Shown piece by piece: positions 3 through 13,002 of a stretch of DNA of 64,000 nucleotides. Source of the DNA: an uncultured delta proteobacterium (GTDB taxonomy: Bacteria > Myxococcota > UBA727 > VGSZ01); contig CAVZJB010000004.1 of the NCBI GenBank assembly GCA_963775425.1, positions 384,001 to 448,000 on the forward strand, given 5' to 3'. Below the pieces are notes generated by a model. That model saw nothing but the letters and a program-made list of their open reading frames with translations. It was not told the DNA's origin and did not search any database. Within the stretch, counting starts at the first letter, position 1. Each line of letters begins with the position of its first letter. The position numbers and the translations under genes are program-made.

Positions 3-3000
3 GGCAACGTCCTGTACAACAAGACCATCGTCGGCACGGCCAACATCGGCCGTCCCTCGATCGCCCGTGTCAGCGACACCAGCACCATCTTCTGCTCCAG
101 CAACGGTGACAACCGCCCGCCGGAGTTCGGCGTCGCCTGCGCCGCCGTCGACGCCCTCACCGGCGACAAGACCTGGGACAACAACACCTGCACGCCCGCC
201 CGCGGCAACAACACCCAGGGCTCCTGCCTCATCGCGCAGTCGCACCCGAACGCGAACCCGCCGACGTACATGAACCAGCCGATCGTCGCCCTCGGCGAAA
301 ACGGCCGCTTCTACGTGCAGGTCGAGCAGAGCAACGGCCCGCCGAACAACAACAACAACAACGCCCGCGGCGCCACCACCACCATGCTGTACACGCTGCT
401 CCCGAACGCGACCGGCCCGAGCATCCAGGGCCACGTCGAGAGCATCGGCCTCAACCAGGTGCACGCCACCACCTGCACCGGCAAGTACGGCCAGGACGCC
501 AAGGTCCACGTCGCGGTCGTCGACTCCTCCATCACCGGCTCCGGCATCGGCGCCGTGCAGCTCGAGAAGTTCGACATCACCGGCCAGACCCTGACCCAGG
601 TCGGCAACCCGCTCGCCCTCTCCGGCTACCCGGCGGACAGCGGCTACCTCGCCAACCAGGACGGCCAGAACCCGAACGACCAGGGCCGTGACTTCATGCG
701 CTGCATCGGCGACATCGCCAACCCCGGCTTCGGCGTGGCCAACGGCTTCATGCCCACCGTGCAGAGCTTCTTCGCCATCCCCTTCGCCGGCTGCGCCGAC
801 GACCAGGGCGCGGCGTGCGACCCCGACGTCAACCCGAACAACCCCGAGAAGAACTCGCTGTTCCTGAGCCTCCTGCCCGCCGAGGAGCCCGCGCCCGCGC
901 CCATCGTGACCCACGACCTCTCCGTCGTCGTCGATGGCCAGGGCACCGGCAAGGTCTTCTCGAGCCCGCTCGGTGTCGACGGCTGCGACAGCGGCGCCAC
1001 CTGCACCGCCACCTTCGACGAAGGCACCAACATCACGCTGACCGCTCTCGCCGGTGAAGGCTCCATCTTCAGCGGATGGCAGGGCGCCTGCACGGGCACC
1101 GGCGGCTGCGTCGTCGCCATGAGCCAGGCGCAGCAGGTCACCGCGACCTTCGACGTCGGCGGCGTCATCGTGAACGACCCCGTCGGCCTCATCGTGAGCG
1201 TCCTCGGTCAGGGTGACGGCAGCGTGACCTCCGACCCCGCGGGCATCACCTGCACCGGCGGCACCTGCGCCAGCAACTTCGACCGCAACAGCAGCGTGAC
1301 GCTCACCGCCACTCCCGGCGCGGGCTCGAAGTTCACGGGCTGGAACGGCGACTGCAGCGGCACCGAGCCCTGCGTGCTCACGCTCAGCGCCGCGCGCAAC
1401 GTGACCGCGGTGTTCGACCTCGACCCGAACGCGCCCGACGGCGGCGACAACGGCAACGGCAACGGCGGCGACGTGACCAAGGCTCCGGGCGCGAGCTCGA
1501 CGGGCTTCAACTGCGCCTCGAGCGGTTCCAGCCCGAGCGCCTACGCCATGCTCGCGCTCGTGGCGGGCGGCCTGTTGTTCCTCCGTCGCCGGAGGTCGGT
1601 TCTGACGGGCGCCGCGAGCGCTGCCGTCGCCGTCGGCCTCGTCGCCTCGCTGACCGCCTGCCCGGCGGCGGCGCCGACCCCGGTCATCGACGCCTTCGTC
1701 GCCGACCAGCCCACGGTCGCGGCGGGGACGCCGGTGCAGCTCTCCTACCAGGTGCATGACGCCGAGGCGGTGACCATCTCCGTGCTCGCCGGTGTCGACG
1801 TGCTTCCCTTCAGCGACCAGCTGAGCGGAACCATCTTCACCCCACCGGTGACGGTCCCCACCACGTTCGTCATCACGGCGTTCGGCCCCGCGCTTGCGGG
1901 GCGCGCCCCCATCCAAAGCACCAAGACGGTGAGCGTGACGGTGGGTGACCCCGCCAACCCGACGCCGAGCGAGGGCGAGGGCGAGGGCGAGAACAACGTC
2001 GCGGTCCACGCGCAGATCCTGTCGTTCGGGCCGTCGGCGACCAACGTCACCACCGGCGACTCCGTGACCCTGACCTGGCAGACGAGCAACGCCGCCTCCG
2101 GCGTCATCCTCGCCAACGACGCGGTGCTGACCACCATCACGGCGTCCGACCTCACCACCGGCACGTTCGGCACCACCCCCGACGCGTCCGCGGTGTACAC
2201 GCTGTCGCTGTCCGGCTCCGACGGTCAGCTCGTGACGTCGACGACGGCCGTGAACGTGTCCCCGCCGGGCGTGGGGCCGCTCACCGCCGAGGCGATGTTC
2301 TCGAGCAACGTCGAGCCCATCCTGCAGTCGAAGTGCGGTGTCTGCCACGAGTCGGGCAACGCCTCGGGCTACCCGGACCTCTTCGGCACCAGCAGCCCCG
2401 ACACCTACTACCAGCGCGTCACCGCCGACTCGCGGTTCATCCCCGCGGTCCCCGAGGACAGCCTGCTGCTGTTGAAGGGTGAGCACACCGGCCCGGCGTT
2501 CCTCCCGGCGGAGGCGCAGCAGGTGACCGCGTGGCTCGTGCAGGAAGCGGGGGAGCGCGGCACCGGCTCCACCGGCCCCACCGACCCGGGTCCGACGGGC
2601 AACTTCCAGCCGACCACGCTCGCCGAGGCCCTCACCCGCTTCGGCGCCTGCATGGACCGCCAGGTGTGGGACAACACCGTGGGCCAGGGCAACAACACGC
2701 GCATCGCCCAGCAGAACACCACGCAGGGCAAGTGCATGGGCTGCCACTCCTCCGGCACGGCGGGCGCGTTCCTGAGCGCCAGCTCCGGTGACACGTTCGA
2801 CATGAACCGCACCCGCCCCTACGTCCTGAAGCTCGTGCTCAGCACGGCCAACGTCGATGGCTCCTTCAAGGACCTCGTCGCGGCCCGCCGCTTCGAGAAG
2901 AAGGGCAGCGAGGGCGGCGACCACCCGAGCTACCAGCTCACCCAGGCCCGCCTCGACGCCATCAACAGCTTCGTGGACCAGACCCTCACGTCGTACCACG

Positions 3001-3029
3001 ACTACACGCAGGCCTGTAACAACCCGTAG
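3..3029 (+). CDS. Large exported protein, 5'-truncated: two InlB-B-like Cys repeats, internal MYXO-CTERM-like segment plus lipobox, Ig-like domains, two c-type heme motifs
   Basis: Frame is open from the window start into ORF 270..3029. Repeats 'V.GQG.G.V.S.P.G..C...C...F...TLTA...S.F.GW.G.C.G' occur twice. GFNCASS..LALVAGGLLFLRRRR is followed by LTAC. CGVCH at 2334-2348 and CMGCH at 2733-2747. Confidence 0.85.
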   Translation, partial: GNVLYNKTIVGTANIGRPSIARVSDTSTIFCSSNGDNRPPEFGVACAAVDALTGDKTWDNNTCTPARGNNTQGSCLIAQSHPNANPPTYMNQPIVALGENGRFYVQVEQSNGPPNNNNNNARGATTTMLYTLLPNATGPSIQGHVESIGLNQVHATTCTGKYGQDAKVHVAVVDSSITGSGIGAVQLEKFDITGQTLTQVGNPLALSGYPADSGYLANQDGQNPNDQGRDFMRCIGDIANPGFGVANGFMPTVQSFFAIPFAGCADDQGAACDPDVNPNNPEKNSLFLSLLPAEEPAPAPIVTHDLSVVVDGQGTGKVFSSPLGVDGCDSGATCTATFDEGTNITLTALAGEGSIFSGWQGACTGTGGCVVAMSQAQQVTATFDVGGVIVNDPVGLIVSVLGQGDGSVTSDPAGITCTGGTCASNFDRNSSVTLTATPGAGSKFTGWNGDCSGTEPCVLTLSAARNVTAVFDLDPNAPDGGDNGNGNGGDVTKAPGASSTGFNCASSGSSPSAYAMLALVAGGLLFLRRRRSVLTGAASAAVAVGLVASLTACPAAAPTPVIDAFVADQPTVAAGTPVQLSYQVHDAEAVTISVLAGVDVLPFSDQLSGTIFTPPVTVPTTFVITAFGPALAGRAPIQSTKTVSVTVGDPANPTPSEGEGEGENNVAVHAQILSFGPSATNVTTGDSVTLTWQTSNAASGVILANDAVLTTITASDLTTGTFGTTPDASAVYTLSLSGSDGQLVTSTTAVNVSPPGVGPLTAEAMFSSNVEPILQSKCGVCHESGNASGYPDLFGTSSPDTYYQRVTADSRFIPAVPEDSLLLLKGEHTGPAFLPAEAQQVTAWLVQEAGERGTGSTGPTDPGPTGNFQPTTLAEALTRFGACMDRQVWDNTVGQGNNTRIAQQNTTQGKCMGCHSSGTAGAFLSASSGDTFDMNRTRPYVLKLVLSTANVDGSFKDLVAARRFEKKGSEGGDHPSYQLTQARLDAINSFVDQTLTSYHDYTQACNNP

Positions 3030-3066
3030 TAGCGCATTGCGCACACGAGTGCGCTAGGCTCGCTCC

Positions 3067-3777
3067 ATGGAGCCGGCAACGATCCTGGTCGTCGATGACG
3101 AGCCGGATCTTTGCCGGCTCCTCCAATTCAACCTCGGCGAAGCCGGGTTCGTCCCGCAGGTCGCCGAGAGCGGCACCGAGGGCCTCGCCGCCGCCGAGAA
3201 GCACCGCCCGAGCGTCGTCGTCCTCGATCTCATGCTGCCCGACCTGCCGGGCACCGAGGTCTGCCGGCGCCTGCGCGCGCACCCCGACCTCCATGACGTC
3301 GGCATCCTGATGCTCACGGCGCGCAGCGACGACTACGACCGCATCGTCGGCTTCGAGCTCGGTTGCGACGACTACGTGGTGAAGCCGTTCAACGTGCGCG
3401 AGGTGATGTTGCGCGTGCGCGCCCTGGCCCGCCGCGTGAGCGATCGGCGCGCGGCGGCGGCGGCCAACGCGGGGATCTCGAGCGGCCGCGTGGTGTCGTG
3501 GCGCGGCCTGAAGGTCGACATCGATCGCCACGACGTCACGGCGGACGGCGAGGAGCTCCATCTGCGCCCCGTCGAGTTCCGGCTGCTGACGGCGCTCCTC
3601 GAGAACCCGGGCACCGTGTTGTCGCGCGAGCGGCTCCTCGAAGAGGTGTGGGGCGCCGACGAGGTGAGCACGCGCACCGTCGACACCCACGTGAAGCGCC
3701 TGCGCCAACGGCTCGGCGCATACGGGGAGTGCATCGAGACCGTGGTCGGCTTCGGCTACCGCGTTCGCGAGCCGTGA
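3067..3777 (+). CDS. OmpR/PhoB-family response regulator (PhoB-like)
   Basis: ILVVDDE, LDLMLP, DDYVVKPF receiver motifs; winged-helix tail TRTVDTHVKRLRQRLG..IETVVGFGY. Confidence 0.93.
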   Translation: MEPATILVVDDEPDLCRLLQFNLGEAGFVPQVAESGTEGLAAAEKHRPSVVVLDLMLPDLPGTEVCRRLRAHPDLHDVGILMLTARSDDYDRIVGFELGCDDYVVKPFNVREVMLRVRALARRVSDRRAAAAANAGISSGRVVSWRGLKVDIDRHDVTADGEELHLRPVEFRLLTALLENPGTVLSRERLLEEVWGADEVSTRTVDTHVKRLRQRLGAYGECIETVVGFGYRVREP

Positions 3778-5486
3778 AGCTCACCTTCCGGGTGAAGCTG
3801 ATGCTCGGCTACGTCGCCCTCGTGGCGGTCGCCGAGATCCTCACCGTCGTCGCCCTCGACCGCTCCCTGTCCGCCGAGCTCACCACACAGCTCGCGCGGC
3901 GCCTCGAGGACCAGGCCAAGGGCTCCGCCGAGTGGGTGGCCGCGGGGAGGCACCCCTCGGTGGTCGCCGGGCGCCTGTCGCACATCGCGAGCGCGCGCGT
4001 CACGCTCATCGACAAGGACGGCGCCGTGCTCGGCGACTCCGGCCCCGACGCCCCCGACGACGCCAGCGCGACGCCGGAGGTGGCTGCTGTGCGCGCCGGC
4101 AGGATCGGGCGCGACGTTCGCAAGAACCCGCACCTCGACGAGGAGGTGCTCTACGTCGCCGTCCCCGCGCCCGAGGGCATCGTGGTGCGGCTGGCGGCGC
4201 CGCTGTCCGACGTGAACAGCACGTTGTCGTTGTTGCGCCAACGACTGCTGCTGGTGTCGGCGGTGGTGTTCGTGCTGGCGGTGCTGTTGGCGCTGGTGGC
4301 GGCGCGCCTGCTCGCGTTGCCGTTGGTGGCCATGCGCGATGCAGCGCGCGGCATCGCCCAGGGCGACTACGACGTGCACCTGCCGCCGGGGCCGCAGGAC
4401 GAGTTCGGCGATCTCTCGCGCTCGCTGCGCTCGCTGGCCGATCAGCTCGACGCGCGCATCGGCGAGATCGTGTCGCAGAGGAACCGTTTGCAGACCGTGC
4501 TGGCGTCGATGATCGAGGGCGTCGTCGTGCTCGACGCCGAGCGCAAGGTGGAGCTCGCCAACCCGTCCGCCGAGCGCCTGCTCGGCCGCGGCGCGCTTGC
4601 CGGCCGCTCGCTCGACGACATCGTCGTGGTGCCGGCGCTGCGCGCGCTGTTCGATTCGGCGGGGGCCGAGGGCGCCGCCGCCGAGGTCGAAGACGGCGAG
4701 CGCGTGCTGGCGGCGACGGTGCAGCCCCTGTCCGACGGCGGCGCGGTCTGCGTGCTCCACGACGTCACGGCGCCCCGCCGCATGGAGGCGATGCGCCGCC
4801 AGTTCATCGGCGACATCTCCCACGAGATCGGCACACCGGTGTCGGCCATCCAGGGCTACGCGGAGACGCTGATGTCGAAGAAGCAGCTCGACCCGGCGAT
4901 CACCACCGAGTTCCTCGAGATCATCCATCGCCACGCGCGCCGCATCGGCAACCTCGTCGCCGACCTCCGCTTCCTGTCGGCGCTCGAGGGCCGCGTGCCG
5001 GACGCGCACGAGGCCCGCGAGCCCGTCAGCCTCCGCGAGCTGGCGCACCACGTGAGCGAGACCGTTCGCCCCCGCGCCGAGGAGCGGAAGACCTCCGTGA
5101 GCATCGACATCGACGACGACGTCGTCGCGCTGGGCGACACCGACCACGTGGAGCGCGTGCTGCTGAACCTCGTGGACAACGCCGTGAAGTACGGGCGCGC
5201 CGGCGGCACCATCACCGTACGGGGTCGGAAGAAGGGCGGACGTGTCGTCGTCGAGGTCACCGACGACGGGCCGGGTATCCCCGCCGACCACATCGACCGC
5301 GTCTTCGACCGCTTCTACCGCGTCGACCGCGGTCGCTCCCGCGCCGTCGGCGGAACGGGCCTCGGCCTCGCCATCGTGAAGCAGCTCGCCGAGGCGATGG
5401 GCGGCAGCGCCGCGGTGACGAGCGAGCTCGGCAAGGGTGCCCGCTTCGTCGTCGAGCTCCCCGCCGTCGACATGGCAAACGCATGA
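3774..5486 (+). CDS. PhoR-like sensor histidine kinase (2 TM, HAMP, PAS, HisKA, HATPase)
   Basis: GTG overlaps the regulator stop (GTGA). H-box DISHEIGTP, N-box NLVDNAVKY, DDGPGI, FDRFYRVD, GGTGLGL. Confidence 0.92.
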   Translation: MKLTFRVKLMLGYVALVAVAEILTVVALDRSLSAELTTQLARRLEDQAKGSAEWVAAGRHPSVVAGRLSHIASARVTLIDKDGAVLGDSGPDAPDDASATPEVAAVRAGRIGRDVRKNPHLDEEVLYVAVPAPEGIVVRLAAPLSDVNSTLSLLRQRLLLVSAVVFVLAVLLALVAARLLALPLVAMRDAARGIAQGDYDVHLPPGPQDEFGDLSRSLRSLADQLDARIGEIVSQRNRLQTVLASMIEGVVVLDAERKVELANPSAERLLGRGALAGRSLDDIVVVPALRALFDSAGAEGAAAEVEDGERVLAATVQPLSDGGAVCVLHDVTAPRRMEAMRRQFIGDISHEIGTPVSAIQGYAETLMSKKQLDPAITTEFLEIIHRHARRIGNLVADLRFLSALEGRVPDAHEAREPVSLRELAHHVSETVRPRAEERKTSVSIDIDDDVVALGDTDHVERVLLNLVDNAVKYGRAGGTITVRGRKKGGRVVVEVTDDGPGIPADHIDRVFDRFYRVDRGRSRAVGGTGLGLAIVKQLAEAMGGSAAVTSELGKGARFVVELPAVDMANA

Positions 5487-5561: not shown

Positions 5562-6185
5562 ATGAAAAAACTCAATGGCCTTCTCGTCCTCTCGTCGTTC
5601 CTGATGCTGCCCCTGCTGTCCACCGCCTGCCCGCCCGCCGTGGGCGAAGGCGAAGGCGAAGGCGAAGGCGAAGGTGAAGGTGAAGGTGAAGGTGAAGGTG
5701 AAGGCGAAGGCGAAGGCGAAGGCGAAGGAGAGGGCGAAGGCGAAGGAGATGCTTGTCTCTCCGGTGGCACCGCTTTGACGACGACGGGCGCGGGCCGCTG
5801 CGACGACCCGAAGGTGGTCACCATCGCGAGCACGGGCACGTTCGTCGTGCAGACGGGCGCGGACCAGACCAACGGCAACAACGCCAACCTCGACACGTGC
5901 GCCAACGGCCAGACCGCGCGTGACGTCGCCTTCCAGCTCGATCTTCCCGCGGGCGTGACGACGTTGCAGGCGAGCGTGGACGCTGGCGGCGGGTCCCCCC
6001 TCGTCAACATCTTCTCCGGCGCGGCGTGCGGCCAGACCGTGAACCAGTGCGCGGCGACGAGCGGCGCGTGCGCCACTGCGACGGCGACGTCGGGGACGGA
6101 CTTCACGGGGACGTCGATCTTCGTCTCCGTCTCCGAGGAGACCGCCACCGCCAACGACTACGCCCTGCGACTCGACGTCCAATGA
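5562..6185 (+). CDS. Lipoprotein with (Gly-Glu)17 linker and Cys-containing beta domain
   Basis: MKK plus hydrophobic stretch plus STAC lipobox; GE tract at 5643-5747. Confidence 0.85.
5643..5747 (+). repeat. 6-bp coding microsatellite (GGN GAR)x17
   Basis: Direct reading; synonymous variation between units. Confidence 0.95.
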
Positions 6186-6595
6186 GAGCCCGAGCGCTCA
6201 CCTCGCTCGCCGGCGTCGCCGCCGCGGGACTGCTCGCCGGCGTCTGGCCGAGCTGTCTCCCCGACGGCCCGCCGGAGATCTGCGACAACGGGATCGACGA
6301 CGACGGCGACGGCAACGTCGACTGCGACGACGCCGACTGCGAAGCCGAGTGCGCCGTCACCGCTGGCGAGGGCGAAGGGGAAGGCGAAGGCGAGGGCGAG
6401 GGCGAAGGGGAAGGCGAAGGGGAGGGCGAAGGGGAGGGCGAAGGGGAGGGCGAAGGTGAGGGTGAGGGTGAGGGCGAAGGTGAGGGTGAAGGCGAGGGCG
6501 AAGGTGAGGGTGAGGGTGAAGGCGAGGGCGAAGGTGAGGGCGAAGGCGAAGGCGAGGGAGAGGGCGAGGGTGAAGGTGAAGGCGAGGGCGAATGA
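6182..6595 (+). CDS. Small exported protein or lipoprotein with an [22 protein letters not shown] acidic motif and a C-terminal (GE)~38 tail
   Basis: ATG overlaps the previous stop (ATGA); signal peptide ending PSC; stop overlaps the next ATG. Confidence 0.8.
6365..6592 (+). repeat. 6-bp coding microsatellite, about 38 Gly-Glu units
   Basis: 228 nt of GGN GAR running into the stop codon. Confidence 0.95.
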
Positions 6596-8814
6596 TGAGG
6601 ATGTCGACGGCAGCGCTCGCGTGCGCGCTCGTCGCTGCGGTGCCCGCGCGAGCGGGGGTGGAGACCTCGTGGGACTGCTTCTTCGCCGCCGAAGGCGTTG
6701 ATTGCTCCCAGCTCGAAGAAGCGTTCTTCCACGCGACCCCGTTGTTGATCCGTGTCGACGCGCCGGACAAGCCGGCGCCCTACGACGGTGGAGCCGTGCA
6801 CCCGTCGAGCGACGAGCGCGCCGGGGCCTCGCCGGCGTCGGGCGAGCCGGGCGCGACGTGGGGCGCCGGGGCGTCGCCGGCGTCGGGCACGCCGGGCGCG
6901 ACGTGGGGCGCCGGGGCGTCGCCGGCGTCGGGCACGCCGGGCGCGACGTGGGGCGCCGGGGCGTCGCCGGCGGCGGGCACGCCGGGCGCGACGTCGGGCG
7001 CAGGGGCGTCGCCGGCGGCGGGCACGCCGGGCGCGACGTGGGGCGCAGGGGCGTCGCCGGCGTCGGGCACGCCGGGCGCGACGTCGGGCGCAGGGACGTC
7101 GCCGGCGTCGGGCACGCCGGGCGCGACCTCGGGCGCAGGGACGTCGCCGGCGGCGGGCACGCCGGGCGCGACCTCGGGCGCAGGGACGTCACCGGCGGCG
7201 GGCACGCCGGGCGCGACCTCGGGCGCAGGGACGTCGCCGGCGGCGGGCACGCCGGGCGCGACCTCGGGCGCAGGGACGTCGCCGACGGCGGGCGCGCCGG
7301 GCGCGACCTCGGGCGCAGGGACGTCGCCGGCGGCGGGCACGCCGGGCGCGACCTCGGGCGCCGGGACCTCGCCGGCGGCGGGCGAGCCGGCCGCCACGTG
7401 GGACGCCGGGACGTCGCCGGCGTCGGGCACGCCTGCGGCCGCGTCGGGCGCAGCGACGTCACCGTCGTCGGGCGCCGCGACGGCGCCGGAGCCGCCGGGT
7501 GCAGGCGCTCCGGCGCACGCCGCACCACCGGCAGCGCCGGACGACTCCTCGCACGCGGCGCCGGACGCTCCCCCTCAGGCATCGACGCACGCGGATGCGT
7601 CGACGAGGCGGGTCGCGGTGGTGCTGCGCAGCACGCCGTTCACCGGGGGCGTCGAGTACAGCATCGACATCACCGGCGCCGACGGGCGCGAGCACGTGGG
7701 CATCGTGGACCGCGTGCCGTCGACCTTCTCCGACGCCACCGTCGGCAATGGCAGCGGCGGCGGCGGCGGGCTCGGCGGCGGCGCCGACACCGGCGGCGGC
7801 GGCGGACAGGGGACGGGCGGCGGCAGCGGCCGCGGCCGCGTCTCGCGCAGCGCCGTCGTCGTCCTCCGCCTCGTCGCCGATCTCCAGCGGGCGATCGTGC
7901 CGTTCCTCTCCGCCGACCACCCCGCCGTCGTCGACGACGACGGCATGACGCTCTCCCTCAAGGACCCCGCCTTCACGCCGGGCCAGGCGCGCGTCGAGGA
8001 CCGCGCCGCCCGCTGGTTCGCGAGCCCTACGTTCTCCGGCGACGTCTCCCAGACCGCCCTCCTGCGCATCCAGGGCCGCGCGCAGCTCGACGCCAACTGG
8101 TCCAATCCGCTCTTTCGCGTCTTCGGCACGTCGTGGGCCGGCTTCACGTTCCTCTCCGCGCCGGGGCCGCGGGAGAAGGACCCGGCCCAGACCTTCGGCT
8201 ACGCCATCGACGGCCTCGACGTCACCGGCGCCAGCGTCCTCGGCGGCGGCTGGAGCGTCGGTGTCGAGGGCCGCGTCACCCAGGCGCCCGACCAGAACTG
8301 GTTGCTGCGGGCCTCCGGCTACACCGGCGTCGAGTGGGTCCTCGTGCCCTTCCTCGCCACCAACGGCGGCAACGTCGGCGTCCGCTACGTCATCGGCACC
8401 GAGCACCAGGAGTACGTCCACGAAAACGTCGAGAAGTCGTTCGAAGGAAACTTTCTCCGCCACCGGCTCGTCGCCTTCGGCGTCTGGCACTTCGAGCGCG
8501 TCGACCTCTCCGCGTCTCTCGCCGGCAGCTCCATCGTCAAGGACTTCACCTACTCGGACGTGTCCGCCGCGGCCAGCGTGGCGTGGCGCGTGGTCAACGA
8601 CCTCTCCGTCTCCCTGTCGACGACGGCGTCGTACCGAAACGCGCTCGTCAACGCCCCCGACAACCTCAACGAGCTCGATCCGCTCGAGCGGTTCGTCGGC
8701 GGGGGAAACTTCGGCGCCGTGAACTACACGGCGTCGCTGTCGTTGGTCTACGTCCTCGGCAACTCGCTGCTCGAGCGCCAGGACCAGAGGTGGAGCAATG
8801 GCACCGAGCAGTGA
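6592..8814 (+). CDS. Putative outer-membrane beta-barrel protein with N-terminal Cys pair and low-complexity insert
   Basis: Signal peptide (ARA-G); WDC..DC motif; C-terminal ~280 aa of alternating, aromatic-rich beta strands. Confidence 0.7.
6820..7449 (+). repeat. 45-bp tandem repeat x14 encoding AG(A/T)SP(A/S)(S/A)GTPGAT(W/S)G
   Basis: 630 nt equals 14 x 45; read directly. Confidence 0.95.
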
Positions 8815-9959: not shown

Positions 9960-11369
9960 ATGCCCGCCGTCGACGACGTTCATGCGCCGGTGCGCGGGGG
10001 CCTCGATCCTCGCCTGCGCGTGCTCTTCCTCCTCGCCGTCGCCGTCGGGGTCTTCTTCCTGCACGTCGTGTGGCAGGCCGCGGCGGCGTGCGGCGCGCTC
10101 GCGGTGCTGTGGCTCGTCGTCAAGCTGCCCCCGAGGCGCTTGCTGCGGCAGGTGCTCAAGCTCTGGGGCTTCGCGCTCTTCGTCCTCGTGTCGTACGCGT
10201 TCTTCGCGAACAACCCGGCCACGGATCGATGGGAACAGCTCCCGATCGTCCCTGTGCGCATCAACGTCTCCGCGCTCGTGCTCGGCTGCTTGATGATCCT
10301 GCGCGTCATCGCCGTCATCCTCGCCTCGCAGGTCGCGCGCGCCGGCGACGTCCGCGCCGTCGCCGCCGGCCTCGGCAAGCTCGGCGTGCCGCGCATCGTC
10401 GCCGTCTCCATCGACACGGTGCTCTCGCTCCTCGGCGACGAGCCGCGTGGCCGCATGGGGCGCGGCAGCGGCGGCGGCACGGGGCGCGGCGGGGGCGGGG
10501 GCGGGGGCGGCCGAGGCGACGGCGGCGGCGGGGGACGCGGGCGTGGCGACGGCGAGCGCGCTCACGACGGCGACGGCGGCGGCGGCGGTTTCTGGCAGGC
10601 GGTGCGCCGAATCGCGCGCGGCGACGTCGAGCCCATCGTCCAGCGGCTCTCGCGCCAGATCGATCGCGCGCACGAGCACGCCGAGGCGCAGAGCGACGCC
10701 CTCACGGAGAAGGAGCGCACGCGCGTGGCAGACATCGGGGTCATCGCCGGTGTCTCGCTCACCATGCTCGGCATCAAGGCCCTCAAGATCCTGCCGAGCA
10801 TCCCCTTCGCGCCGGGCCACAAGCTCGTGTTGCTCACGCCGCTGTACATCGTCGCCGGGATGCTGACCCGCGGGCGGGGCGGCGCCACGCTCACGGGGCT
10901 CACCATGGGGACGGTGGCGTTCCTCATGGGTGACGGCAAGTACGGCGTGTTCGAGATCGTGAAGCACGTGGTGCCCGGCATCATCACGGACCTCTGCCTG
11001 CCCCTCGTCGCCGGCGGCGGGCGCAGACCGGGCGGCGTGGTGTGGACGCTGTTCGGTGGCGTCATCGCCGCGGGCCGCTTCGCCACCATCTTCGTCATCA
11101 CGCTGCTCGTTCAGGCCCCGGCTGTGGCGTACGCCATCCTCGTGCCCGGGCTGACGGTGCACATCACGTTCGGCCTCGCGTCGGGCTACGTCACCTTCCA
11201 CATCGTGCGCGCGCTCGATCGCTTGCCGGCGGCAGCGGCGGGGCGCTTCCCCCCGCGCGTGGATGCCCGCGGCGGCGCGCCCCCCGCCGCCGACGCGCCG
11301 GCTGACGACGCCGGCGGCGCCCCCCTCGAAGCCGGCGCAACGCCGGCGGAGCTCAAGGAGACAGGATGA
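9960..11369 (+). CDS. ECF transporter T-component (CbiQ/EcfT-like) fused to an S-component-like membrane domain
   Basis: N-terminal LDPR motif, TM helices and 'GLGKLGVP' typical of EcfT. C-terminal ~170 aa of about 6 TM helices with 'GGATLTG...PGIITDL' typical of S components. Confidence 0.75.
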   Translation: MPAVDDVHAPVRGGLDPRLRVLFLLAVAVGVFFLHVVWQAAAACGALAVLWLVVKLPPRRLLRQVLKLWGFALFVLVSYAFFANNPATDRWEQLPIVPVRINVSALVLGCLMILRVIAVILASQVARAGDVRAVAAGLGKLGVPRIVAVSIDTVLSLLGDEPRGRMGRGSGGGTGRGGGGGGGGRGDGGGGGRGRGDGERAHDGDGGGGGFWQAVRRIARGDVEPIVQRLSRQIDRAHEHAEAQSDALTEKERTRVADIGVIAGVSLTMLGIKALKILPSIPFAPGHKLVLLTPLYIVAGMLTRGRGGATLTGLTMGTVAFLMGDGKYGVFEIVKHVVPGIITDLCLPLVAGGGRRPGGVVWTLFGGVIAAGRFATIFVITLLVQAPAVAYAILVPGLTVHITFGLASGYVTFHIVRALDRLPAAAAGRFPPRVDARGGAPPAADAPADDAGGAPLEAGATPAELKETG

Positions 11370-12202
11370 ACAAGTTGGTCAAAGGCGACGGCCGCACGCA
11401 CATCGAGAGCTCTCTCATGCGCGAATCGCTCGTCGACAAGCGCGTCATCGCGCGTACGCAATCGGAGCACGAGCTCGCCATCGTTCCCGACGTCAAGCTC
11501 GTCGGCATCGGCGGGCAGTCGATCTTCGACCGCGGCAAGGAGGGCGTGCTGCCGCTCGTCGAGGAGATCAAGGACGCGCGGGCCAAGAAGAAGCGCATGG
11601 TGCTCGGCGTCGGCGGCGGGACCCGCGTGCGCCACACCGTCTCCATCGCCTACGACCTCGGCATCCCGGTGGGCGGCATCGCGCAGCTCGTCGGCGCCAT
11701 GGAAGAGGCGAACGCGGTGTTCTTGAACGCGCTGCTCGCCAAGAACGGGTCCATCGTGATGCAGCGGGAGCACTTCTGGGAGCTGCCGCTGTACCTCGAG
11801 AGCGGGATGTTGCCGATCATCATCAGCATCCCGCCGTATCACTTCTGGGAGCCGCCGGTCGACGACAGTCCCCTGCCCTCCCACGGCAGCGACTTCGGCC
11901 TGTTCATCTACGCCGAGGTGCTCGGCATGGAGCACGTCATCTTCGTCAAGGACGAGGACGGCATGTACGACAAGGACCCCAAGGCGCACGACGACGCCAA
12001 GCTCATCAAGAGCACCACGCTGGGGGCGCTGCTCGCGGACATGCCCGAGGAGCTCATCCTCGACCGCATGCTCTTCGAGGCGTGGCGCTCCGCGCGGCAC
12101 GTGAAGCGCGTCCAGATCGTCAACGGGCTCAAGCAGGGCGAGCTCACGCGCGCGTTGAACGGCGAGGACGCCGGCACCATCATCACGAAGGAGACGGCAT
12201 GA
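11366..12202 (+). CDS. mosA: Molybdenum storage protein alpha-like subunit (amino acid kinase fold)
   Basis: HIESSLMRESLVD N-terminus, DRG..GVLPLVEE, GTRVRH, DLGIPVG, PPYHFWE, ARHVKRVQIVNGL..G.LTRAL.GE..GT match Azotobacter MosA as recalled. Confidence 0.85.
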   Translation: MNKLVKGDGRTHIESSLMRESLVDKRVIARTQSEHELAIVPDVKLVGIGGQSIFDRGKEGVLPLVEEIKDARAKKKRMVLGVGGGTRVRHTVSIAYDLGIPVGGIAQLVGAMEEANAVFLNALLAKNGSIVMQREHFWELPLYLESGMLPIIISIPPYHFWEPPVDDSPLPSHGSDFGLFIYAEVLGMEHVIFVKDEDGMYDKDPKAHDDAKLIKSTTLGALLADMPEELILDRMLFEAWRSARHVKRVQIVNGLKQGELTRALNGEDAGTIITKETA

Positions 12203-13002
12203 GCGAGCGAAGAGTGATCGAGAGCGCGCTGGCGCAGTCGTCGATGACGAACCCGGCCACGGCGGGGTTCAGCTACGACGCCCAGGCGATGATGCCGGAC
12301 GTCAAGGTCATCAAGATCGGCGGGCAGTCGATCATGGACCGCGGGCGCGCAGCGGTGTTCCCCGTGCTCGACGAGCTCGTCGCCGCCAAGGCGCAGCACA
12401 AGCTGCTGCTTGGCTGCGGCGGCGGCACGCGCGCGCGGCACGTGTACGCGGTGGCGTCCGACCTCGAGATGCCCACGGGCGTGCTGGCCGCGCTCGGCGG
12501 CTACGTCCCCATGCAGAACGCGCGCATGGTGCAGATGCTGCTCGCCAAGCACGGCGGCATCTACATCATGCACGACGACTTCGAGAAGCTGCCGCTCTAC
12601 TTCCAGCTCGGCTGCATCCCCATCATGACGGGCATGCCGCCGTTTTCGTATTGGGAGAAGCCCGGCGAGCATGGCCGCATCCCGCAGAACCGCACGGACG
12701 CCGGCGTGTTCCTCTCGGCGGAGGTGCTCGGTGCCAAGCGCGCGCTGTACATCAAAGACGAGGACGGCCTGTTCGAGGACGACCCGAAGAAGAACAAGAC
12801 CGCCAAGCACATCCCGCGCATCACCGCCGCCGAGCTCATCGAGCGCAACCTCGATGACCTCATCGTCGAGCGCGTGGTTATCGAGTACCTGCGGCACGCG
12901 CGCTTCTGTCACGAGCTTCAGATCGTGAACGGCCTGAAGCCCGGCAACATCACGCGCGCCCTCGCCGGCGAGGACGTGGGGACCATCATCACGAAGGAGT
13001 GA
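12199..13002 (+). CDS. mosB: Molybdenum storage protein beta-like subunit
   Basis: ATGA overlap. VIKIGGQSIMDRGRAAVFP, HKLL, GTRARH, GMPP, IP..RTDAG.FL.AE, KDEDGL, TRALAGE.VGTIIT closely match Azotobacter MosB as recalled. Confidence 0.88.
   Translation: MSERRVIESALAQSSMTNPATAGFSYDAQAMMPDVKVIKIGGQSIMDRGRAAVFPVLDELVAAKAQHKLLLGCGGGTRARHVYAVASDLEMPTGVLAALGGYVPMQNARMVQMLLAKHGGIYIMHDDFEKLPLYFQLGCIPIMTGMPPFSYWEKPGEHGRIPQNRTDAGVFLSAEVLGAKRALYIKDEDGLFEDDPKKNKTAKHIPRITAAELIERNLDDLIVERVVIEYLRHARFCHELQIVNGLKPGNITRALAGEDVGTIITKE

Follow-up and report, generated by a model that had tools for sequence, protein, structure and literature searches.

Two back-to-back anchor signals inside a fused propeller-cytochrome protein of Myxococcota: a possible lipid-anchored polyprotein

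What is a MYXO-CTERM sorting signal, normally placed at the C-terminus of a protein, doing in the middle of one? The question is raised by an open reading frame (ORF) at the edge of a 64,000-nucleotide stretch of DNA from an uncultured delta proteobacterium of the Myxococcota (contig CAVZJB010000004.1, positions 384,001 to 448,000; this whole stretch is called the window below), in which a MYXO-CTERM runs without a stop into a lipoprotein signal. Positions 1503-1664 of the plus strand encode GFNC-ASSGSSPS-AYAMLALVAGGLLFL-RRRR-SVLTGAASAAVAVGLVAS-LTAC-P, all within the single open frame 3..3029, with 477 residues following the RRRR and 455 following the second Cys. The complete protein (P0002) begins with a basic, apolar and ATA-Q leader that looks like a signal peptide, as judged by inspection rather than by a predictor. 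From comparison with its relatives we conclude that a conserved Myxococcota gene pair has genuinely been fused in this ORF, one gene encoding a propeller protein with a terminal MYXO-CTERM and the other a diheme c-type cytochrome lipoprotein. Its product would probably be a polyprotein that myxosortase and Lgt/LspA process into two lipid-anchored partners.

The junction, first described from the window alone and borne out there by the sequence, recurs in 12 other sequences. When the downstream 514 residues were searched against proteins of 554-1764 amino acids (aa), the matches were the window protein itself and eight fused relatives of 1162-1244 aa, 51-58% identical over that region, and a search of representatives added two more distant fusions with other domain content (P0020, 880 aa; P0023, 1029 aa). 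A scan of GTDB yielded L001, L002, whose junction is visible and whose contig ends before the cytochrome, and L013, which is nearly identical to P0010 and is not counted again among the 13 fused sequences (the window protein, P0003-P0010, P0020, P0023, L001 and L002). Junctions were inspected at the DNA level in the window, L013, L001 and L002, and as protein only in P0003-P0009, P0020 and P0023. A search for further long proteins with this cytochrome gave one weak match and, having missed known fusions, is uninformative; the junction region gave no usable match against the Atlas.

The suggestion that two separately exported and anchored proteins had been joined is upheld by the split orthologues, in which both signals are true termini. 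The GTDB scan, made with one peptide pattern that does not match the window's own protein, confirmed 20 of 31 candidate stretches, titled Myxococcota or unclassified Deltaproteobacteria; 17 of these loci are split and three fused, a sample and not a census. The cytochrome directly follows the propeller in 19 of the 20, and in the split loci its gene starts 1-84 nucleotides (nt) past the stop (1-3 nt in ten of them). All 17 split cytochrome genes open with their own basic, apolar and Cys signal, so that the signal lying internally in the fusion is there at the N-terminus. A propeller search gave 108 matches, comprising 98 stand-alone propeller proteins, six fusions and four repeat proteins that are longer or unrelated; once one match that is partial at its C-terminus is excluded, 97 of 97 stand-alone orthologues end in the Cys, transmembrane (TM) and basic arrangement that is internal in the window protein. 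Stand-alone lipoproteins of 472-489 aa with the same layout of two immunoglobulin-like (Ig) domains and a cytochrome were also found, and L005 (Bradymonadia) is the split counterpart of the window's exact architecture. In L014-L019 the propeller gene is followed by two tandem paralogues of the diheme cytochrome lipoprotein.

As the stop stands so close before the next ATG in ten of the split loci, a small assembly or sequencing error deleting a stop codon could join the genes, and the preliminary description had named a missed stop as the observation that would undo the fusion. This explanation, whose probability is negligible, is ruled out by the 12 other fused sequences, which come from separate assemblies, and by the G+C content at third codon positions (GC3), which is continuous across the junction; the nearest relative, P0003, moreover shares RRR-SVL-G-AA at this point, with no Met. 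GC3 in the ORF frame is 0.88-1.0 in each 150-nt interval and 0.92-0.96 over the junction, and because it stays high throughout there is no frame switch. The fusions look old, because four-fold sites differ at 139 of 336 positions between the window and L013 and at 130 of 333 between L001 and L002, near the ceiling for a GC3 of about 0.95, and synonymous sites between fused pairs thus appear close to saturated.

In a propeller tree of 129 rows the fused forms fall into three groups and require three changes: group A, the window clade, which is nested among split relatives; group B, consisting of P0020, L001 and L002; and group C, P0023 alone. A single clade of all fusions was rejected by the approximately unbiased (AU) test for the propeller (p 2e-93, 30 of the 129 rows used) and for the cytochrome (p 6e-4, and p 5e-4 for A with B, the fragments P0015 and P0017 being excluded). 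In the cytochrome tree A and C as one clade were not rejected (p 0.067), and B with C only marginally so (p 0.048). The trees were built by a quick method with no mixture model. That fusion arose at least twice is well supported by these comparisons; three origins are likely, and each probably kept both signals. Change counts alone cannot separate gain from loss of the fusion, and we infer that the splitting direction would demand a stop, a start and a ribosome site to be regained many times.

Two hidden Markov models recognise the proposed internal MYXO-CTERM. TIGR03901 (cut-off 20) gives the 54-aa segment 26.4 bits and the complete window ORF 20.4, and TIGR03382 (cut-off 15.85) gives them 22.9 and 16.6 bits respectively. 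The helix of this signal is the 15-residue apolar stretch between the Cys motif and RRRR, and with a value of 1.53 it is the weakest of three hydropathy peaks in the window protein, below a beta-rich stretch at residues 383-401 (1.61) and the second apolar stretch (1.85). Cys, TM helix and Arg cluster are present in 13 of 13 fused sequences, the Cys is conserved at 90% or more across 78 family rows, and internal and terminal helices are alike in hydropathy (p 0.15) and basic count (p 0.38).

The second signal of the window protein has the parts expected of a lipoprotein, with RRRR as a basic n-region, an h-region of 21 uncharged residues (mean Kyte-Doolittle hydropathy 1.72) and LTAC as lipobox. 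From 111 of the 131 Met-initiated signal peptides on stand-alone members of the cytochrome family a position-weight matrix was trained (leave-one-out median 16.6, 5th percentile 3.3); it ranked the junction Cys first among the 10-28 Cys of each protein in all 13 fused sequences, with scores of 8.8-22.9. The apolar stretch before this Cys is 10-21 residues long, and small lipobox-type residues are kept at -1/-2 throughout. The earlier suggestion that RRRR serves both signals fits six of the 13, in which the Arg cluster is the sole n-region (P0002, P0003, P0020, P0023, L001 and L002); the other seven have extra Arg or Lys in a linker.

Both junction Cys, residues 727 and 776 in P0002, are retained in every fused sequence while the residues between them diverge. 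In an alignment of the nine group A proteins, 6 of 28 columns are invariant in the first signal and 2 of 22 in the second, the Cys of the latter being invariant in 9 of 9, and about 30-40% of columns are invariant in the folded domains; the MYXO Cys of P0002 is shifted by one column in this alignment and is conserved in the separate 78-row family alignment. A conserved pattern in a divergent sequence is as expected for signals. The hairpin region has a predicted local distance difference test score (pLDDT) below 50 in the structure model.

The two halves themselves are distinct folded proteins. An AlphaFold2 (AF2) model of the family member P0168 (pLDDT 86) gives a beta-propeller upstream of the junction, and structurally it is matched best by generic propellers (top Z 32.1, root-mean-square deviation 3.1, 347 aligned residues, 9% identity; 5-13% identity overall). 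The label of adhesin-like, given to this half before, has no support beyond the repeats; the half is a beta-propeller with two InlB-B-type repeats, tightly paired with the cytochrome, it has no adhesin match in Pfam or NCBIfam, and no evidence of adhesion was found. The downstream half consists of two domains resembling Ig and fibronectin type III (FN3) folds, followed by a helical domain with a pair of CxxCH motifs and another two His, all invariant in 57 stand-alone rows and retained, as candidate distal ligands in the case of the two His, in 12 of 12 complete fused sequences. The cytochrome narrowly misses its best Pfam family (PF13442, 26.7 bits, cut-off 27), its best PDB sequence match has an E value of 0.017, its look-alikes in the Atlas are unnamed cytochrome clusters, and fold searches of this half were filled by Ig domain matches, not by the cytochrome. 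A complex prediction scored 0.47 for propeller and cytochrome (runs 0.56, 0.01 and 0.47) and 0.00 for the best control, with at least 88% of contacts agreeing between runs and a partner pLDDT of at least 81; of 157 solved pairs 116 attain the mark used, and of 215 mismatched pairs 2, but those scoring 0.60 or below comprise only 18 solved pairs together with both mismatches. This model lends weak support to the halves binding each other.

We propose the following model for the fused protein. The N-terminal leader would route the propeller half through Sec, and the MYXO-CTERM helix would halt transfer with its Arg cluster inside, as is established for terminal tags. The Arg cluster, joined in certain lineages by a basic linker, and the apolar stretch that follows would then act as an internal lipoprotein signal, by which the cytochrome half would be exported and become able to receive its two hemes, as its retained heme motifs strongly imply. 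Heme c is attached outside the cytoplasmic membrane, and because of this re-export of the C-terminal half is the least that the second signal must accomplish. The MYXO Cys would be lipidated and myxosortase would cut behind it, and the lipobox Cys would be lipidated by Lgt and LspA would cut before it. The 48-aa hairpin (1515-1658) would be released, and the propeller would carry a lipid at its C-terminus and the cytochrome one at its N-terminus. The two proteins, probably partners, would be made 1:1 at one site, with nominal masses of about 73 and 47 kDa against about 125 kDa for the uncut product. In the relevant passages of PMC11980579 the cut by myxosortase is proposed to fall directly behind the lipidated Cys, cleavage depends on this Cys, and substrates carrying a C-terminal FLAG tag are cleaved; because FLAG-tagged substrates are cut, a free Arg terminus is not required.

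Some observations weigh against this model. The evidence is all comparative, and a Cys at either end of the hairpin could be lipidated uncut or linked in a disulfide. The curated MYXO-CTERM cut-off of either model is passed by only 5 of 11 full-length fused proteins, the split P0162 lying below it likewise, and P0009, P0020 and P0023 have no MYXO-CTERM match at E 0.1. The MYXO Cys of the window is preceded by an Asn; none of the 97 stand-alone relatives has an Asn at that place. Fused forms also have the Arg cluster closer to the Cys (median spacing 23 against 26, the rows not being independent). At the second signal, the matrix score of the window junction (10.4) lies below the training median, and its h-region is at the long edge of the family (5-95% range, 11-20) and could form a stable TM helix. 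Pfam found no gene for a myxosortase (CPBP family), Lgt or LspA among the 40 other genes of the 64-kb window, and the literature searched held no report of Lgt/LspA acting on an internal signal behind a TM helix. Finally, a GGAGG followed by CTG sits at the window junction.

Because the retained Cys pair does not prove proteolysis, products with one cut or none have to be weighed beside the double cut. With a single cut, myxosortase would free the propeller and leave the cytochrome anchored by the hairpin, or LspA would free the cytochrome and leave the propeller in the inner membrane, giving two polypeptides with a single lipid-only anchor. The atypical Asn, the shorter spacing and the long h-region of some group A members would suit such an outcome, and in mrtX mutants uncleaved MYXO-CTERM proteins are partly surface-exposed, as described in a passage of PMC11980579. 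Both Cys are nevertheless kept in all 13 sequences over separate origins, and the h-region of group B, at 10 residues, is too short for a stable anchor, and we regard a single cut as unlikely. With no cut, a single protein would stay in the inner membrane through a two-helix hairpin, its halves both periplasmic and its Cys lipidated or disulfide-bonded. Heme maturation would then be satisfied by topology alone, the two Cys would lie on the same face of the hairpin, and the weakly predicted binding of the halves would suit a tethered unit. A plain covalent link could, however, have dropped the hairpin, which 0 of 13 fused sequences did, the small residues at -1/-2 of the lipobox persist in all of them, and the TM residues show no conservation of the kind that a packing pair would; an uncut protein is accordingly an improbable product in our judgement.

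The GGAGG at 1591 and the in-frame CTG at 1602 raise a further alternative, by which the lipoprotein half would also be made alone from an internal start at the junction and the fusion would be partly nominal. The GGAGG is formed by the sole AGG among the 26 Arg codons of the ORF, among the 14,387 internal codons of 25 window genes only 2 are an in-frame CTG behind GGAGG, the junction included (11 are an in-frame ATG, GTG or TTG), and a motif resembling a Shine-Dalgarno (SD) sequence often stands at the same place in split relatives. Against this, CTG is a poor start, the resulting signal would have no basic residue, the junctions of L001 and L002 have no SD, that of L013 has AGGAGG with no start codon in range, and with no stop in between, translation from upstream would go on yielding the full fusion, leaving this explanation only a slim chance. 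No fused sequence has a Met at the junction. SD-like GGAGG or AGGAGG is seen in or just past the Arg cluster of both group A loci with DNA (window 1591-1595; L013 about 6790), where it is possibly a relic, a pause site or an internal start.

If both cuts of our preferred model occur, this would be a natural bacterial polyprotein handled by two lipid-anchor pathways at a single membrane hairpin; Lgt/LspA would accept an internal signal, myxosortase would tolerate a large re-exported extension, and lipoproteins hidden inside ORFs would escape annotation pipelines. More tentatively, and with a chance that we put somewhat short of even, a MYXO-CTERM abutting a lipoprotein signal may be a reusable, self-excising 'cut-here' linker in Myxococcota, read by myxosortase and LspA, which evolved convergently two to three times in the propeller-cytochrome pair and may hide other polyproteins in the phylum. 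By such a cassette a MYXO-CTERM gene and a following lipoprotein gene could fuse by stop loss and still yield two native lipid-anchored proteins 1:1, and it would offer a compact linker for 1:1 co-display of two proteins. A scan of 520 collected proteins, which is not a phylum-wide survey, found no other internal MYXO-CTERM beyond the propeller-cytochrome family. The split L005 and the fused window protein, with identical domains, form a ready control for questions of MYXO-CTERM lipidation and cleavage site. The features of the ORF are collected in Table 1.

Table 1. Features of the fused ORF, in window coordinates.
Feature	Position	Strand	Basis or remark
Fused ORF	3..3029	+	5' end beyond window; full protein P0002, 1231 aa
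Beta-propeller domain, C-terminal part (whole domain P0002 about 27-520)	3..893	+	AF2 model of family member P0168 and fold matches
Two divergent InlB B-repeat domains (PF18998)	906..1424	+	E 4.5e-17, 2 stretches
Gly/Asn/Pro/Asp-rich linker preceding the sorting signal, little conserved	1425..1511	+	1 of 29 columns invariant in group A alignment
Internal MYXO-CTERM: Cys 1512-1514, TM helix about 1539-1583, RRRR 1584-1595	1512..1595	+	TIGR03901 above cut-off
Internal lipoprotein signal (signal peptidase II type): n-region RRRR, h-region 1596-1649, lipobox LTAC 1650-1661 (Cys 1659-1661)	1584..1661	+	Family-trained matrix
Predicted 48-aa hairpin peptide, set free if both cuts happen	1515..1658	+	Inference from myxosortase model and general LspA knowledge
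GGAGG, then in-frame CTG 6 nt on: possible relic or alternative internal start	1591..1604	+	Sequence
Ig/FN3-like domain 1, lipoprotein half	1677..1946	+	Predicted structure, fold searches
Ig/FN3-like domain 2, lipoprotein half	1998..2273	+	Predicted structure, fold searches
Diheme c-type cytochrome domain	2274..3026	+	CxxCH 2334-2348 and 2733-2747; invariant candidate distal His 2484-2486 and 2922-2924

The surroundings of the pair define a widespread unannotated Myxococcota module, made up of the propeller, the diheme cytochrome, an upstream lipoprotein-like gene and often ECF-T-like and molybdenum-storage genes. One unannotated gene, about 330 aa long and conserved in 17 of the 20 GTDB loci, looks like a lipoprotein gene in most inspected copies; it stands directly upstream in 16 and downstream in L001 (for example L003:6602-7789 and L013:3273-4283), and six copies tested had no Pfam or NCBIfam match. 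It is probably the third member of the module, and for the window locus its place would lie outside the window. Neither this gene nor the propeller or the cytochrome could be placed in a named family by searches of Pfam, NCBIfam and PDB. A CbiQ/ECF-T-like gene lies near the pair in 10 of the 20 loci and molybdenum storage protein genes in eight; in the window a CbiQ/ECF-T-like gene is followed by homologues of two molybdenum storage protein subunits (9960-13002, plus strand; best PDB E values 5e-58 and 6e-76). TonB-dependent receptors flank L003 and L005. These neighbours hint weakly at an envelope role in redox or in the handling or acquisition of molybdenum or tungsten.

Other genes were noted around the fusions. 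Directly downstream of the window ORF lie an OmpR-type response regulator and a HAMP/PAS histidine kinase (3067-5486, plus strand), found in the same order in L013, where their best NCBIfam matches are PhoB/PhoR-like and under cut-off. They are followed on the plus strand by a pair of short ORFs that resemble lipoproteins and contain long (Gly-Glu)n tracts (5562-6185 and 6182-6595), the first of which has STAC-P, comparable to LTAC-P at the junction, and by a tandem 15-aa Ala/Gly/Ser/Pro/Thr repeat (about 6850-7430) in a 740-aa exported-looking ORF with no Pfam match. A large multiheme cytochrome is encoded downstream of the group B fusion in L001 (13219-15807), and in L013 the second gene before the fusion (2602-3273) codes for another, ordinary MYXO-CTERM protein, which has a choice-of-anchor V domain. 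A cluster of TPR, TonB_C, FHA and GYF_2/zinc-ribbon genes, mostly on the minus strand, occupies 14098-45160 of the window and presumably resembles the gliding-motility operons of myxobacteria.

How does this junction compare with systems already described? The cytochrome b-c1 precursor FbcH of Bradyrhizobium japonicum is reportedly one gene with an internal signal that gives two mature envelope proteins, including a c-type cytochrome, by a single signal-peptidase cut after a polytopic protein, and is said to have no sorting tag, lipid anchors or double cut. The anatomy of one ORF with an internal signal, as reported for FbcH, fits the window protein, for which processing is a prediction. That anchor signals of the C-terminal type are workable in mid-protein is suggested by a Haloferax ArtA substrate with a non-terminal tripartite signal and by the engineered internal glycosylphosphatidylinositol (GPI) signal of DAFhGH, which is processed mid-protein (passages of PMC2288913); these cases belong to other enzymes and domains of life and, as far as these sources were drawn on, have no second lipid-anchor signal sharing the basic cluster. 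The terminal MYXO-CTERM/MrtX system (TraA, MXAN_4924), in the part of PMC11980579 that describes it, has in common with the window protein the Cys motif, TM helix, Arg cluster and a model score above cut-off, and apparently also the N-terminal leader. Its tags are followed by few residues, in contrast to 477 here, and for the window protein cleavage is a prediction.

A close precedent is MXAN_5598 of Myxococcus xanthus, for which an internal MYXO-CTERM was noted and whose authors suggest a gene fusion with the N-terminal part processed and anchored (PMC11980579, Guo, Haft and Wall 2025). It resembles the window protein in having an internal MYXO-CTERM from a probable gene fusion and differs in its downstream part, an outer-membrane beta-barrel with an OmpA domain; in the window protein the second signal is a lipoprotein signal and the partner a diheme cytochrome. 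The passages of that paper on MXAN_5598 mention no second signal, split orthologues or repeated origin, and its processing is a proposal. No report of a MYXO-CTERM joined to a lipoprotein signal was found in the literature searched, mostly outside subscription journals, and the portions drawn on of preprint 10.1101/2023.06.07.544157, PMC6372800, PMC4158809 and PMC3668242 contain nothing on such a junction. An internal MYXO-CTERM was thus already known; what is new, within that literature, is the hairpin of MYXO-CTERM and lipoprotein signal with its split orthologues and repeated origin, two back-to-back anchor signals in mid-protein being an arrangement rarely described in bacteria.

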